Assembly (NCBI GenBank): GCA_023265365.1
Contig: JAHFTY010000006.1
Coordinates: forward strand, 1-47,484
Direction: 5' to 3'
Source: Acidobacteriota bacterium
Lineage (GTDB): Bacteria; Acidobacteriota; Terriglobia; 20CM-2-55-15
DNA length: 47,484 nt
Shown: piece by piece, positions 20,705 to 26,289 of the stretch
Position numbering within the stretch: position 1 is the first letter of the stretch
Layout of the letters: the number at the start of each line of letters is the position of its first letter
Made by a program: the position numbers and the translations under genes
The notes under the pieces: generated by a model
Seen by the model: the letters and a program-made list of their open reading frames with translations, nothing else
Told to the model about the DNA's origin: nothing
Databases searched by the model: none

Positions 20705-23188
20705 CTAGAAGTTGAAACGCAGTCCCGCCTCGATTTCGCGCGGGTTGCGGGCGTTGAACGAACGGCCGAAGTACGGCGACGTCATCACACCCGATGGAGT
20801 TCCGTAGTTCGTTCGATTGAAGGCGTTGTTCATGTTCGCGAACAGATTCAGATTCGTGCCGCTGCCCTTGAGCCCTTTTCTTTCGCCGAAGAAAATCGCT
20901 TTCGAGATATTGAAGTTGAAGCTCACGAAATTCGGACTGTTCGCACTGTTGCGCGCGCCACCGGCGGGCCTGTCGTTGGTCTGGCCATCCTGGTTGTCGT
21001 CGGCGCCGGTCGTAATGTTGTAGGGCTGTCCGCCGTTACGCACCATGCTGCCGGTGAGGAACACTCCAAGTGGAAGCTGCGCATTGATCGTCGTATTGAG
21101 GTTGTAGGGTTGCCGCCAGCCGGCGCGTCCCCAATCGGCGCGGAGATCGTAATTGTCGGCCGGGAGATTCCACCAGCCTTCGGAGTCCGTATAGGTGCTG
21201 CCCGTACTGTAAGACGCGTTCAGGTTGAAAATGCTGAAGCGCTGTCGGGCGGAAAGCCGCAACGTCTGAGAGTTCGACAACGCGGTGGATTCCAGATTCA
21301 AGACGTTCCCGCGGGTGGGATCGGGATTCTGGGTTTGCCCGCGGAACGGTGCATTCAGATTACGAGTGCGGAGTTGACGCACGCCGCGGTTCCGGTCATA
21401 GCTGACGCTGAGGAAGAGGTTGTTCTTGAACGTCTTCTCGACCGAAATCTGCGCCACGATGTTGTACGGCGTTGTGAGGTCCCGGTCGGTCACACGAATC
21501 GAAGAAGGCGGGACCACGGTCACATCGCCCGATTGAAAAGGGTCCGGCCACGAGGGGTTGTTGACCACGATTTCGTACTGGCGCGATCCGTCGAACCGGC
21601 GTTGCTGCTGAATGATATCGTTCTGGATCCGCTGATAAAACACACCGGATCCCCCGCGAATCACAAGGGACCTGCCCATCGCATAGGCAAAGCCAAAACG
21701 CGGCGCAATGTTATTGCGATCCGCGATGTTGGTCTGCCAGTCGTAGCGGCCGCCGGCCATGAGGGTGAGCCGCTGGTTGACCTTGAAGTCGTTCTGCATG
21801 AATGCGGACATTTCGAGTTGATTCAGATCCAGGACCGGGTTTCCCCGGGTGATCCGATAGGTAATGGGACGGCCGGCCACGTAGTCCTGAAGATTCGAGA
21901 AGGTGAAGGTTCCCGCGTAATTCTGAATCGAGTAATTGTGGTTCGTCCGGTACGAGCCGTCGATTCCCGCTTTGAGCGTCCACGCCGAACCCATACGCGT
22001 CAGGAGGTTTGAGAAATTGTATTCCCGGGCCTGGTTGTCCGTCTTGTCCTGCGCGCCGCCGGCGCGGAAGGCGTCCAGGACGTTGACCGCCACTTTCTCC
22101 GAAAGGGGCTTCGTGCGGAAATGCCTCCGCTGGATTTCGAATGAGGTTTCATACAGCGTCTGCTCGGAGATTACGGAGAACTGGCGGACCCCGAAATTCG
22201 AGTTGCTTCCCAGAGAACTGGAGGCGCGCTCGGGAAGCGTAAAACCTCCGACGAACTGATTCTTCTGACTGTTTGTGCCGTAGCGTGTGTTGAAAATGAG
22301 GGAATGCTTTTCCGTGAGCTGAAGCGTGCCGCTAATGCCAGCAGACCGGTTGGTGTTGGGATGCACGATCCCCAACTCGAACACACCATCGGGTTGGATG
22401 GCATGCACGGTATCCACGTTCTGGGACTCGTTGTTGTGACCGGAGAAATTGATCGTTAAACGATTGCGAATCAATGGTCCGCTGAAGTTCCCGCTGACCT
22501 GGCGCTCCTGGTAAGGCGGCTTGTTGCTCGCAAAGGGATTACGCGCATTCAGTGTTTCGTCCTGCAGGTTCACGGATCCCTGTCCGTGAAATGCGCCGCT
22601 GCCGCCGCGCTCGATGACTTCCGGGCCGCGGTTTCCGCCACCGCCGCCACCCATCATCATTCCCATTCCGCCCCGAAAGAATCCTTCTTCGGCGGTGAAA
22701 TTGTTGTTGTTGATACGGATGAACTGGGTCTGCTGCTTTTGCCGATCCTGAGACTTGGCGAGCGCGCTTTTTGCGATTGTCTTCTCCGACTCATGGCGTT
22801 CCCAGAGGGCAAGCTGTTCGACAGTCAGGTATTCTCGAAGCCGCTTGCTGAACTCGGTCTGCATCCACTGAATCGCCGCGACTGCGCGGTCCATCTGCTG
22901 TCCCTGGACAGGCCCGCCGCGGAAATCCATCGTTTCGCCGAAAAGCTGCTCGGAGGCCTGACGTCTGTCCTCGGTCATCAGCGCGATGCTTTTTTCCTGT
23001 TCGTCCGTGAACGGCCGGCCGGCCTCCCTGAGAAGAGCCTTAACTTCTTCGCGAAGATCGTCCAGCGGATTGGATGAGGTTGAACTCGAACCCTGCTGGG
23101 CGGACAGAAGAACGGGTGCCAGAAAAACGATGGCAATGAAGACGGTTGCAAGAATCCGGAATCTCACGAAGATGTTCACTCTCCTCAC
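20705..23188 (-). CDS. TonB-dependent-receptor-like (Oar-type) beta-barrel protein
   Basis: Signal peptide, motifs LNARNPF, SGPLI.N.L, F.QNDFKV..RLTL..G.RY and PRFGFAY, ending PREIEAGLRFNF. Confidence 0.8.
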   Translation of the reverse strand: MRRVNIFVRFRILATVFIAIVFLAPVLLSAQQGSSSTSSNPLDDLREEVKALLREAGRPFTDEQEKSIALMTEDRRQASEQLFGETMDFRGGPVQGQQMDRAVAAIQWMQTEFSKRLREYLTVEQLALWERHESEKTIAKSALAKSQDRQKQQTQFIRINNNNFTAEEGFFRGGMGMMMGGGGGGNRGPEVIERGGSGAFHGQGSVNLQDETLNARNPFASNKPPYQERQVSGNFSGPLIRNRLTINFSGHNNESQNVDTVHAIQPDGVFELGIVHPNTNRSAGISGTLQLTEKHSLIFNTRYGTNSQKNQFVGGFTLPERASSSLGSNSNFGVRQFSVISEQTLYETSFEIQRRHFRTKPLSEKVAVNVLDAFRAGGAQDKTDNQAREYNFSNLLTRMGSAWTLKAGIDGSYRTNHNYSIQNYAGTFTFSNLQDYVAGRPITYRITRGNPVLDLNQLEMSAFMQNDFKVNQRLTLMAGGRYDWQTNIADRNNIAPRFGFAYAMGRSLVIRGGSGVFYQRIQNDIIQQQRRFDGSRQYEIVVNNPSWPDPFQSGDVTVVPPSSIRVTDRDLTTPYNIVAQISVEKTFKNNLFLSVSYDRNRGVRQLRTRNLNAPFRGQTQNPDPTRGNVLNLESTALSNSQTLRLSARQRFSIFNLNASYSTGSTYTDSEGWWNLPADNYDLRADWGRAGWRQPYNLNTTINAQLPLGVFLTGSMVRNGGQPYNITTGADDNQDGQTNDRPAGGARNSANSPNFVSFNFNISKAIFFGERKGLKGSGTNLNLFANMNNAFNRTNYGTPSGVMTSPYFGRSFNARNPREIEAGLRFNF

Positions 23189-23261
23189 TCAAACGGCGCT
23201 TCAGTTTACACGTTTTGGACCCGTTTTTGTTGCAGTATAGCGAATTCGCCGGGCGGCAAAT

Positions 23262-23408
23262 TCAGCTTCCCTTTTTGTCTTCAGTAGTGCGCGCGTCCCG
23301 GCGCGGATTGGGTTTCGCTCAGGTCGGAACGCCGAGCCGCGGGAGGATCCAATACTGAAGTGCGAACCAGACTGCCAGAAACAGTCCAAAGGTAATCATG
23401 GAGTTCAT
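23262..23408 (-). CDS. Small membrane protein, probable selenoprotein (48 aa if UGA30 is read as Sec; 29 aa otherwise)
   Basis: Manual translation MNSMITFGLFLAVWFALQYWILPRLGVPT-[TGA 23321-23319]-AKPNPRRDARTTEDKKGS-stop. AAGGGG RBS, start 12 bp after the prmC stop, one TM helix, hairpin 13 nt after the UGA. Confidence 0.65.
23290..23305 (-). promoter_or_regulatory. Candidate bacterial SECIS hairpin
   Basis: Minus-strand CGCGC-CGGGAC-GCGCG, 13 nt downstream of the in-frame UGA, with a G-rich apical loop. Confidence 0.5.
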
Positions 23409-23420
23409 TTCAAGCCCCTT

Positions 23421-24254
23421 TCAAAGCGGTTTCTGCGCGACGACAGCCCTGGGAATCCCCTGCAGATCCCTCCGGGTCGGAAGCGCGTTCCAGCTTCCGT
23501 CAATCAGTGACAGTACCGATTCTTCCATCGCAAATCCAATTTCCATGATCAGTCTCCCCCCCGGCTTCAACAGGTTGATGGCCGATTGAATCAGACGTCG
23601 ATAGATGGCGAGGTCGTCTCCCGGATCGAACAGGGCGACATGCGGCTCGTGGTCGCGAACTTCGCGCTGAAGGCTGCCGGCGTCCCGCCTGGGAACGTAT
23701 GGCGGGTTGCTGACGACGAAGTCGAAATGATCGGAAACGGCGTCCAGAACGTCCATGCAGACGAATGCCACACACGCGCCCAGGCGTTGCGCGTTCTGTT
23801 TTGCCGTCTGAAGAGCGGCTTCCGAGATGTCGGCCGCGAAGACGGATGAATGTGGAAGTTCGAGAGCCAGCGTCGTTCCAATGCAGCCCGAACCGGTGCC
23901 GACGTCGATGATGCGGGTGTTTGGAGAGTGTCCGGTCTCGAGCACGGCTTCGATGATGTGTTCCGTCTCAGGGCGGGGGATCAGCACCGACGGGTTGACG
24001 AGGAAGTCGCGTCCGTAAAACTCCTGATGTCCAACGATGTATTGGACAGGGACGCCGCTGATGCGCTCGCCGATGGCGTTCTCGATCTTTTCGCAGATCG
24101 CCGGCGGCAGCGGTTCGTCGTCGTGTGAATAGAGATAGGTTTTGTCGACGTTCAGGAAATGGGAAAAGAGGACTTCGGCGCAACGCCGGGGATGAGGGAC
24201 GCGTTGGAGTTCGAGCCGGTGGCTGGCGTCGAGAAGGGCTTCCCGGATTGTCAC
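23421..24254 (-). CDS. prmC: Release factor glutamine methyltransferase
   Basis: Motifs [23 protein letters not shown] and SNPPY. Directly after prfA. Confidence 0.97.
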
Positions 24255-25342
24255 GCCACGAGTTCTTTTTTGAGCCGCTCCGCTTGATAGTAGGACGTCA
24301 GCGCTTCGACGATTTCACCGAGGTCGCCGTTCATGACGGAGTCGAGCCGATGAAGCGTGAGACCGATACGATGATCGGTGACTCGATTCTGCGGGTAGTT
24401 GTACGTTCGGATCTTTTCGCTGCGGTCGCCCGTTCCGACCTGCGACCGGCGTTCGTCCGCGAGCGCCTTCTGCTGCTTCTCCATTTCGATCTCGTACAAC
24501 CGCGATCGGAGAACGCGCAGCGCCTTCGCGAAGTTCTTGATTTGCGACTTCTCGTCCTGACAGGAAACCACAAGACCCGTAGGAATATGGGTCAGCCGAA
24601 TCGCGGAATACGTCGTGTTGACCGACTGCCCGCCGGGGCCTGACGAGCAGAAAGTGTCCTTGCGCACGTCATTCATGTTGATCTCGACTTCCACCTCCTC
24701 GGCTTCCGGCAGAACGGCAACGGTAATGGCCGAAGTGTGAATTCGTCCGCTGGCTTCGGTCGCGGGCACGCGCTGTACGCGATGCACACCGCTTTCATAC
24801 TTCAACCGGCTGTACGCGCCCTTACCTTCGATCAAAGCGATGACTTCCTTCAAGCCGCCGATGCCGGTATGGCTCGATGACATGATCTCCACCCGCCCTC
24901 CCTGAGCTTCGGCGAACCGCGTGTACATTCGGAACATGTCGGCCGTAAACAGTGCGGCTTCGTCTCCACCGGTTCCGGCCCGGATTTCGAGGATAACGTT
25001 GCGTTCGTCGTTGGGATCTTTGGGAAGGAGCAGAATCTTCAGGTCGGCTTCGCACTTCGCCAGACGTTCTTCAAGCGCGGCGAGCTCGTCCTCGGCCATC
25101 TTTTTCATGTCGGCATCCGCGCCCACCTCGCCAAGCATGGCGCGGGTGTCCGCGATGCCGCGTTCGAGGTCCTTGTATTCGCGGAACCGGTTCACGATCT
25201 CGCTGAGGTCGCTGTGTGCCTTTGCGGTCTTCTGGTATCGCTTGCTGTCCGAAACGACCTCAGGACTCGCCAGTTCCTGGTTGAGTTCTTCGTAACGCGT
25301 TTCCACGCTGCGAAGTTTGTCCAGCAGGAGGTTTACGCTCAT
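24251..25342 (-). CDS. prfA: Peptide chain release factor 1
   Basis: Motifs [28 protein letters not shown] and RSEKIRTYN. Confidence 0.98.
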
Positions 25343-26289
25343 ACGGTCAGTGCTTCTTCAAGGGCGCGGATTGCGATTTCAAGCTGAGCCTTGTCGGGCT
25401 CTTTCGTCGTAATTTTCTGCAGAAGAAGTCCCGGCATCGTGACGAAACGGAGGATGTTCTTCGGATGTTTCGCGGAATATCGAATGATCTCGTACGAAAT
25501 CCCGGCGACCAGCGGCAGCAGGACGATTCTGGAAAGCAGTTTCGCGCCGATCGAGTCGAAATGGGCGACTGAAAAGACAACGATGCTGACGGTCATGACG
25601 ACCAGAAGGAAGCTGGTGCCGCAGCGCGGATGCAAAGTCGAGTACTTCGAAGCGTTTTCGACGGCCAGTGTTTCGCGGGCTTCGAAGTTGTAAACGGTCT
25701 TGTGCTCGGCGCCATGATACTGGAACACTCGCCGCATATCGTTCATCAGCGAGACCATGGTCAGGAATCCGAGAAACACGATCACCCGGAAGAAACCGTC
25801 GACCAGGTTGAACAGCAGTGAACTCTGAAAACCGGTCTCGGCCTGAATGAAACGAGTCAGAAACAGCGGAAGAACGACAAACATCAGGACGTTGACACCC
25901 AGCGCCAGAACGAGATTGCCGGCGATGAGAGTGTTCGACGTCTTCCTGGCGTCGGCCGCGTTCCCCTGCTTTTCCCCTTCGCCGGCGATGGCTTCTTCGG
26001 CCGAAAAACGAAGGGCCTTGATGCCGAGAACCAGAGCCTGTCCCAGCACGCCGACGCCGCGGAGCACGGGGAGTTTGAATGCTTTCCACTTTTCGCCGAC
26101 GGTGAGGAGGGCGTCTTTGATGACGCGCACCGTGCCATCCTGGCGGCGGACCGCCACGGAGTAGCCTTTCGGGGATCGCATCATCACACCTTCAATGACG
26201 GCCTGGCCGCCAACAAGGATGTCGTCGTTGGAACTGCTCAAGGCCCAGTTCGTGGCTGTCAGGGCGAGACTAAGGAGATAGCGGAGCAT
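25339..26289 (-). CDS. DUF1385 membrane protein (YqhQ-like)
   Basis: Motifs [20 protein letters not shown] and HPRCGTSF, in the usual position between rpmE and prfA. The true start may be TTG 26241. Confidence 0.9.

Follow-up and report, generated by a model that had tools for sequence, protein, structure and literature searches.

The window analysed here is a stretch of 47,484 nucleotides (nt) from an Acidobacteriota bacterium (contig JAHFTY010000006.1), and the element under study is a small gene on its minus strand that occupies the apparent intergenic gap behind prmC, at the end of the prfA-prmC operon. This strand carries a ribosome-binding site, an ATG, 29 codons that include one transmembrane (TM) helix, an in-frame TGA, 18 further open codons and a hairpin. 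As judged by comparison with related sequences, the product of the copy in the window is very probably a membrane protein of 48 residues that spans the bilayer once and has selenocysteine (Sec; U in the motifs given below) at the UGA at 23321-23319. It belongs to a large unannotated family of proteins of about 45-90 residues that are missed or cut short by annotation. Their N-terminus is acidic, they have one TM helix and the motif W-[VI]-L-P-x-[LF]-G-[VI]-x-T-[U/C], and their tail is charged and disordered. The features of the locus are as follows, the start codon and the stop codons being read directly from the DNA:

23423-23421, minus strand: stop codon of prmC
23415..23420, minus strand: Shine-Dalgarno-like AAGGGG, 6 nt 5' of the ATG and immediately past the prmC stop
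23408-23406, minus strand: start codon ATG
23322..23408, minus strand: first 29 codons, MNSMITFGLFLAVWFALQYWILPRLGVPT, comprising the TM helix at residues 3-24 and, next to the membrane, the conserved motif W-I-L-P-R-L-G-V-P-T
23319..23321, minus strand: in-frame TGA, residue 30, very probably read as Sec in view of the TGA/TGY pattern in relatives
23265..23318, minus strand: 18 sense codons past the UGA, AKPNPRRDARTTEDKKGS, with a conserved A-x-P-x-P followed by a charged disordered tail
23290..23305, minus strand: hairpin CGCGC-CGGGAC-GCGCG resembling a bacterial Sec insertion sequence (bSECIS), starting 13 nt past the TGA, with the loop starting 18 nt past it; it consists of CGCGC (23305-23301), the loop CGGGAC (23300-23295) and GCGCG (23294-23290)
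23262..23264, minus strand: true stop TGA ending the 48-codon frame

The list of open reading frames (ORFs) compiled for the window holds only the 29-residue part (23319..23408). A preliminary description, made from the letters of the window alone, had reported the ribosome-binding site, the 29 codons, the UGA, the extension, the single TM helix and the hairpin at 13 nt, and it was found to be accurate on re-reading. Of 190 family members, 153 have a Shine-Dalgarno-like 4-mer 5' of the start codon chosen for them. Read mapping at the locus returned identical DNA contigs of a second study and no match in the RNA run, an outcome that has no bearing on expression.

The reading of the UGA as Sec was examined by comparison of the corresponding codon in relatives. 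A six-frame search of 41 related genomes with the 48-residue read-through protein retrieved four copies, all of which carry an in-frame TGA at the equivalent place, following L-P-[RK]-[LF]-G-[VI]-[PS]-T. A five-member profile was searched over 401 genomes sampled across the phylum Acidobacteriota at a cut-off of E<=1e-5 and matched 111 of them, 110 with a TGA inside the match and one (G394) without a stop. The TGA stands immediately past the ...G-x-x-T motif in all 109 loci inspected (of the 110; G390 was left out). The protein of the sample locus L062 is identical to that of L161, an Acidobacteria record, and database names are consistent with this phylum. For a second sample, a pattern scan with the alignment of the cysteine (Cys) forms was performed on one genome per species, resulting in 348 relatives, with 80 loci kept. 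These belong to Planctomycetota, including the isolate Tundrisphaera lichenicola P12 (locus L147), Acidobacteriota, Gemmatimonadaceae, Spirochaetota, Calditrichaceae and Candidate division LCP-89, and further to Deltaproteobacteria, Myxococcales and metagenome-assembled genomes (MAGs) of the Desulfobacterota type; the codon counts reported for the pattern-scan loci are 40 for TGA and 42 for TGC/TGT (TGY). With duplicates removed, the whole set contains 150 distinct TGA forms and 42 TGY forms. Neither TAA nor TAG was found at the Sec position among the 150 distinct stop-bearing forms, all of which have TGA, while the terminal stops of the same genes are mixed (TGA 79, TAG 42, TAA 27; n=148). 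The preliminary description had proposed to tabulate the codon after P-T, and this tabulation returns TGA or TGY only. Furthermore, L22, P23, G26 and T29 are invariant in an alignment of 47 sequences.

The distribution of the gene is patchy, which may reflect loss or transfer. Within the taxonomic family of the window (f1), a search with the single protein found the gene in the window genome (G000) and in G011 only, among 25 genomes. In G266 (locus L072) the small gene adjoins a DDE transposase.

The 42 relatives with TGC or TGT at the position of the UGA continue with the same downstream motif (MSGAC). This also applies to G394, in which TGT replaces TGA and is followed by M-S-G-A-C; no hairpin was found at the corresponding place of this genome, nor SelA, nor a tRNA-Sec above the family cut-off. 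An exhaustive profile search covering 1.84 billion cluster representatives returned 2448 relatives at E<=1e-3, 132 of them at E<=1e-10. Among 44 of these 2448 that were inspected, 34 possess Cys at the Sec position and continue ...P-T-C-M-S-G-A-C.... The Cys-containing relatives in other phyla which the preliminary description had mentioned are supported by these homologues, which share the motif beyond this position. The other ten have W (six), G, S or R (one each) or end as a 29-residue stub. W or G at the Sec position was seen in the library proteins P0005, P0015, P0032, P0038, P0040, P0097 and P0134, and W and G are the residues that result from TGA under the genetic codes 4 and 25. Judged from protein sequence alone, the simplest explanation of these entries is gene calling under other codes, and they would then be read-through selenoprotein forms hidden under a wrong residue. 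A word-indexed search returned many 29-residue stubs, and all entries were named 'hypothetical protein' except for one JGI label, 'YdcZ (DUF606 family)'.

The reading frame past the UGA stays open in all cases. The in-frame open length past the TGA is at least 15 codons with a median of 26, and none of 148 forms falls below 12, while in the other two frames 24% and 26% reach a stop within 12 codons. Two subtypes of this region can be distinguished. The majority subtype U-x4-C, typically U-M-S-x-[SA]-C, encompasses 125 of the 150 forms, with the second Cys encoded by TGC in 88 and by TGT in 37. The subtype U-[AG]-x-P-x-P contains 17 forms, including the window copy, and all 17 originate from the phylum sample. 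The remaining eight forms are irregular, with Cys at position +4 or +6 or without any Cys in the vicinity. Among the 17 members of the U-x-x-P-x-P type, the codons +1, +3 and +5 are near-invariant at their first and second positions (entropy 0, except for 0.52 bits at position 2 of codon +1), while the third positions vary with 0.7-1.6 bits. This restriction of variation to the wobble position matches the pattern of the three codons preceding the UGA; by this measure, the sequence past the UGA is evolving as coding sequence. An interpretation of the window copy as a frameshifted, degenerate U-x4-C form was dropped after 16 more U-x-x-P-x-P members had been found, and because of these it is regarded as a regular member of the second subtype.

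For comparison of the putative recoding signals, the best perfect stem-loop downstream of the Sec/Cys codon was determined for each sequence. The TGA forms (n=90) show a median hairpin energy of -9.8 kcal/mol, and 72% lie at or below -8 kcal/mol; for the TGY forms (n=42) the median is -4.2 kcal/mol, only 12% are at or below -8 kcal/mol and the positions are scattered. The GC content is about 60% in both. The difference gives p=6e-12 in a Mann-Whitney test, although the sequences are related and their independence is thereby overstated. In 87 of the 90 TGA forms the loop starts 19-27 nt from the U of the UGA (37 of them at 26), the stems mostly comprise 6-8 bp, and the loops are GUC (28), GGA (10), GGUC (8) or other G-rich sequences. 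The 17 hairpins of the window subtype have a median energy of -11.1 kcal/mol and all begin at a distance of 13-17 nt from the U of the UGA, and their stems differ in sequence (CGCGC, CCGCGC, CCCGGC, CCGAC, CCGGC, CCCGCC and others). According to the bSECIS consensus given in PMC13188914, 16-37 nt separate the UGA from the apical loop, and one of the first two residues of this loop is G. The family fits this consensus in both respects, and the window element likewise agrees with it, as its loop CGGGAC starts 18 nt past the UGA and has G at position 2 (PMC13188914).

Covariation was tested with a fixed 8-bp helix imposed on the ungapped alignment of 57 columns. It was found that 59.6% of the cells pair, compared with 43.6% in shuffles (0 of 500 shuffles reach the observed value), and that the covariation score is 0.371, compared with 0.176 for shuffles and 0.136-0.262 for controls with the partner displaced by 1-3 columns. 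Each of the eight helix pairs shows changes on both sides. In the majority subtype, the tail residues [GE]-S-R are the codons of the stem apex, where GGG-TCC-CGN versus GAG-TCT-CGN forms a compensatory pair; in the window subtype, P-R-R constitutes the 5' arm (CCG-CGC-CGG). The downstream hairpin of the preliminary description is therefore conserved, positioned and covarying in the TGA relatives, and it is missing from the Cys forms.

By itself, the window fold does not stand out from chance. Of the dinucleotide shuffles, 6.5% contain a hairpin as good as the 5-bp one of the window (-7.3 kcal/mol), and the folding energy of the 76-nt stretch is reached or surpassed by 195 of 200 shuffles (z +1.6). 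The weight of the hairpin evidence thus derives from the comparison with relatives and not from the fold of the window itself. A search of Rfam returned no relevant match in the window region 23150-23450. As no T-run follows any of the 90 family hairpins, these are not intrinsic terminators, and the possibility that the window hairpin terminates the prfA-prmC operon was rejected, with no terminator-like site found on the minus strand. On the plus strand, the same palindrome at 23288-23305 is followed by GATTGGGTTT and looks terminator-like; this is one site against a chance expectation of 0.8, and no gene on the plus strand leads into it.

The occurrence of the Sec machinery was analysed in the carrier genomes, as the preliminary description had suggested. 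SelA is present in 301 of the 401 sampled genomes, namely in 108 of the 110 that bear the TGA gene and in 193 of the 291 others; the two TGA-bearing genomes that lack it, G266 and G364, encode a tRNA-Sec scoring 70.7 and 71.6 bits, respectively. The TGA gene consequently tracks either SelA or tRNA-Sec throughout. These tallies include the three unpublished genomes G063, G086 and G189, which are all SelA-positive and do not carry the small gene. The family f9 is represented by 33 genomes, of which 11 have SelA; its five carriers of the small gene all belong to these SelA-positive genomes. For the window genome, the selA/selB/selC/selD set named in the preliminary description was recovered in part: selA, selB and a tRNA-Sec (69.6 bits; an SeC type with anticodon tca according to ARAGORN) were found, and selD was not. 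The same genome encodes a Sec-type fdhA (C205:697-3627, minus strand) that scores 979.8 bits, above the curated cut-off, contains one in-frame TGA and is, on this evidence, a canonical selenoprotein gene. Taking the codon pattern, the coding conservation, the family hairpin and the machinery together, the family is almost certainly a true Sec/Cys family, and the membrane-anchored selenoprotein of 48 residues proposed in the preliminary description is well supported for the window.

AlphaFold2 with the family alignment predicts a helix at residues 3-24 with a predicted local distance difference test (pLDDT) score of 86-89 and a tail of low confidence (pLDDT 54-67), and hydropathy agrees with one TM helix. 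On average over the family, the N-terminal flank has 0.22 K+R and 0.93 D+E, and the 25 residues past the helix contain 3.1 K+R. Applying the positive-inside rule to these flank charges, the U/C motif and the tail would be placed at the cytoplasmic face.

The gene context was scanned with Pfam on the nearest large ORF on each side, and thioredoxin was searched by tblastn; all-vs-all clustering of the flanking ORFs was dropped because of spurious GC-rich frames. In 18 of 131 loci, which are distributed over Acidobacteriota, Planctomycetota, LCP-89 and delta/myxobacterial MAGs, a thioredoxin gene is located no more than about 1.5 kb away, and a DsbD_TM-thioredoxin protein is encoded immediately downstream in five loci. 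In the delta/myxobacterial MAG loci L095, L097, L098, L106, L120 and L125, a thioredoxin, the small Cys peptide and a DsbD_TM-thioredoxin fusion protein are encoded on one strand. Fusions were found as well: all three homologues among longer proteins (P0263-P0265) consist of the TM segment, L-P-R-F-G-I-x-T-C-M-S-G-x-C, a linker of about 45 residues and a thioredoxin with WCGPC. P0126 has the same layout with a thioredoxin part above the TIGR01068 cut-off, and L163 (1480-1884) reads in frame into thioredoxin. These fusions come from Planctomycetota-type and metagenome records.

In six Planctomycetota loci a metallo-beta-lactamase-rhodanese protein is encoded upstream, and four of these also have TauE downstream; TauE occurs in five further loci, nine in all. 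The arrangement in L093, L105, L107, L110, L129 and L138 is a metallo-beta-lactamase-rhodanese gene, the small Cys/Sec peptide and a TauE/SafE exporter, with TauE downstream seen in L093, L107, L129 and L138. This three-gene arrangement looks like a sulfide/sulfite-handling cluster. The pair of metallo-beta-lactamase and rhodanese domains is that of persulfide dioxygenase-rhodanese fusions. Other neighbours comprise Usp (7 loci), ArsR-type regulators (6), anti-sigma/ECF sigma pairs (6), cytochrome bd subunit I (4), DUF302 (3), HlyD-type adaptors (3), OsmC (2), AhpC/Redoxin (1) and cytochrome c peroxidase (1). At the window locus, the Pfam scan identified DUF1385, prfA (PCRF and RF-1 domains) and prmC as upstream neighbours on the same strand and an OMP_b-brl_4 barrel protein of 827 residues as the downstream neighbour on that strand. 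The DUF1385 gene (25339-26289, minus strand) lies immediately upstream of prfA-prmC and overlaps prfA by 4 nt. Neither prfA nor prmC nor an outer-membrane barrel gene stands beside the small gene in any of 130 other family loci with a flank of about 1.5 kb. The tie to translation termination, which had been suggested from the neighbourhood of release factor 1 and its methylase PrmC, is thus not borne out, and the adjacency appears coincidental since it is seen at the window locus only.

The small gene is probably co-transcribed with prmC, as the gap between them is just 12 nt. Following the standard bacterial Sec pathway, from which the steps given here are inferred, ribosomes would initiate at the ATG at 23408 and, on reaching the UGA, SelB carrying Sec-tRNA(Sec) would be recruited by the stem-loop at 23305-23290. 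Sec would be inserted and translation would proceed through 18 codons until the stop at 23264 is reached; a fraction of the ribosomes probably terminates at the UGA, yielding a by-product of 29 residues. The U/C-x4-C motif could cycle between a selenol/thiol pair and a selenenylsulfide, and the window copy, whose tail is devoid of Cys, would depend on a thiol from elsewhere or on pairing with a second copy. Because of the recurrent thioredoxin neighbours and fusions, a redox peptide coupled to thioredoxin is suggested. Tentatively, the protein may be a membrane-tethered redox (seleno)thiol with thioredoxin as its reductant and a role under thiol, reactive-sulfur or oxidative stress. A role as accessory subunit of an exporter or oxidase, or in the binding of metals or metalloids, are live alternatives.

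Several observations weigh against parts of this interpretation. The window hairpin is among the weakest of the set, and the covariance model R1 gives it 16.1 bits (E=0.37), about level with the Cys forms; R1 was built from 90 TGA forms, mainly of the majority subtype, which it recognises well, and it is not a useful test for the window subtype because the hairpin of the latter sits in another register. In the 362-contig assembly of the window genome, selD was found neither with the TIGR00476 model nor with the SelD protein of a relative, the best weak match lying on C103. It is above the cut-off in 17 of 20 relatives, 15 of which themselves carry an in-frame TGA; given the 362 contigs, an assembly gap is the simplest reading of its absence. 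The window copy, as a member of the minority subtype U-A-x-P-x-P, lacks the resolving Cys that is present in 125 of the 150 TGA forms. The genomes are related, so that the p-values of the Fisher as well as the Mann-Whitney tests overstate independence. The cytoplasmic orientation has the positive-inside rule as its sole basis. The context scan is confined to the nearest large ORF per side, many of which have no Pfam match, and it revealed no universal partner; the neighbours in the window, prmC and the outer-membrane barrel protein, say nothing on a redox function.

Some of these observations are what would be expected if the UGA were a plain stop here, leaving a membrane peptide of 29 residues, with the downstream frame and the hairpin being relics or serving another role in the mRNA: the weak hairpin in a region that folds no better than shuffles, the missing selD, the tail without a second Cys and the R1 score, to which it can be added that public gene callers routinely output the 29-residue forms. 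A relic would decay, and yet the 17 genomes with U-A-x-P-x-P all keep the TGA, the open frame, the wobble-only variation and a hairpin at 13-17 nt. The window genome moreover retains tRNA-Sec, selA, selB and a Sec-type fdhA, and the hairpins show no sign of being terminators, with no T-run after the 90 of the family and no minus-strand terminator found here. We therefore regard a plain stop as quite improbable. It is highly improbable that the UGA is read through with a standard amino acid, by near-cognate Trp or Cys or under a reassigned code, instead of Sec. The database entries with W, G, S or R (included in the 10 of 44 inspected that are not Cys) could be taken in this sense, but the W and G entries are most simply explained by calls under other codes, as judged above. 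TGA is the commonest true stop of the same genes (79 of 148) and also ends neighbours such as prmC, from which it follows that the code is not reassigned, and the TGA forms track SelA or tRNA-Sec and carry a SECIS-type hairpin that is absent from the Cys forms.

It was also considered whether the open frame arose by chance in GC-rich intergenic DNA and is not a gene at all, as its shortness, the lack of a match in family libraries and the non-significant hairpin might suggest. The chance of this is negligible; it is already refuted by conservation, namely by homologues in 111 of the 401 genomes of the phylum and among 2448 cluster representatives, by the four invariant residues and by the Shine-Dalgarno-like motif in 153 of 190 members. 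Another explanation accepts the gene and concerns its function: U/C-x4-C could bind a soft metal or metalloid (Hg, Cu, As, Se, Te), with the protein acting as a membrane-side chaperone or sensor for efflux or export. Mercury-transport membrane selenoproteins are among the known families (Table 1 of PMC13188914), and the neighbourhoods include ArsR-family regulators (6 loci), HlyD/CusB-type adaptors (3), cation-efflux (1), AcrB (1) and TauE anion exporters (9). Against this, thioredoxin is the only fused partner found (the three longer homologues, P0126 and L163), and the window subtype offers just one chalcogen ligand. ArsR-type regulators, in addition, also include persulfide sensors. This function is accordingly considered unlikely, and the thioredoxin-coupled redox (seleno)thiol is kept as the tentative assignment.

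Neither the Sec form nor the Cys forms gave a match in Pfam-A or NCBIfam 20.0, even at E<=10, and the neighbour found in the ESM Atlas is an unnamed cluster of a 'hypothetical protein'. Table 1 of a review of May 2026 (PMC13188914) compiles 119 prokaryotic selenoprotein families with their motifs, and the motif LPxLGxxT-U combined with a one-TM architecture is not contained in this table (PMC13188914). The same applies to the new families described in the consulted passages of the deep-Sep paper, and full-text literature searches for the motif and for small single-TM bacterial selenoproteins yielded nothing relevant. On sequence grounds we file the family as a new one within a known kind, i.e., canonical SelB/bSECIS recoding, and a provisional listing under another name in the supplementary tables of selenoproteome papers is possible. 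Small or membrane selenoproteins of the 2026 inventory encompass KCU-star/DUF466, the dual-CXXC small protein, the putative mercuric transport protein, TsoB (UxxxxU) and TsoA (LULAxC), which are likewise short or membrane proteins with Sec in a Cys/Sec pair motif (PMC13188914). TsoB has the same x4 spacing, and its rhodanese and DsbD-like parts belong to families that also neighbour the small gene (PMC13188914). In contrast to this likeness, none of the NCBIfam/Pfam models of these families matches the window protein or its Cys homologues at the permissive threshold given above. Membership in the YgaP-like TM domain (DUF2892, PF11127) was rejected as well, with no Pfam match and a profile comparison with the L164 protein giving 0.8% probability over 9 columns. 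This domain is a small membrane domain that ends in a ...LG-x-x-T-C-like motif, and in L164 a YgaP-like gene stands immediately upstream of the family member.

In its recoding, the family resembles genes of the fdhF/fdhA type, with an in-frame UGA, a stem-loop at a fixed short distance, G(G/U) starting a small apical loop, Cys orthologues and a probable dependence on selA, selB and selC; the GGUC and GUC loops of the majority subtype resemble the fdhF loop. It differs in that the coding region past the UGA comprises just 15-30 codons, and the SECIS therefore fills much of the tail and sets its residues (G/E-S-R, or P-R-R in the window subtype). Functionally, SELENOK and SELENOS offer the nearest parallel, an analogy that implies no membership; no sequence relationship is expected. 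Both are small single-pass selenoproteins of the endoplasmic reticulum membrane, in which a disordered cytosolic segment rich in Pro, Gly and charged residues carries the Sec. The Sec of SELENOS is paired with a Cys close by, that of SELENOK stands alone, and both proteins are linked to the thioredoxin system; the U-x4-C and lone-U subtypes described here would parallel these two. SELENOK and SELENOS use a eukaryotic SECIS in the 3'-UTR and have their Sec at the extreme C-terminus, whereas in the small gene the Sec would lie at the membrane interface, the SECIS forms part of the coding tail and the protein reaches about half their size.

Of the sampled Acidobacteriota that use Sec, about a third carry the family, and further members come from Planctomycetota, Myxococcota/Desulfobacterota, Gemmatimonadota, Spirochaetota and other groups. 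Drawing the analogy further, one may picture an unrecognised, very common selenoprotein family of soil and sediment bacteria, a counterpart of SELENOK/SELENOS in which a peptide of about 50 residues places a selenol at the cytoplasmic membrane surface and in which a highly compact SECIS doubles as the coding sequence for most of the conserved tail residues. The selenol would be recycled by thioredoxin and would protect the membrane or its transporters against persulfide, sulfite or peroxide stress. As a whole, this picture is rather doubtful.

If the reading of the UGA as Sec is correct, a widespread selenoprotein family has been absent from the searched libraries and from the 119-family table (PMC13188914), and since gene callers skip the gene or return a 29-residue stub, the number of selenoproteins counted in Acidobacteriota and several other phyla would be an underestimate. 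The proteins would be among the smallest bacterial selenoproteins, anchored in the membrane with the Sec at the bilayer surface. The short module of UGA plus hairpin, with its many natural covarying variants, would constitute a data set on the minimal needs of a bacterial SECIS, and the thioredoxin fusions point to a so far undescribed thiol/selenol relay at the membrane side.

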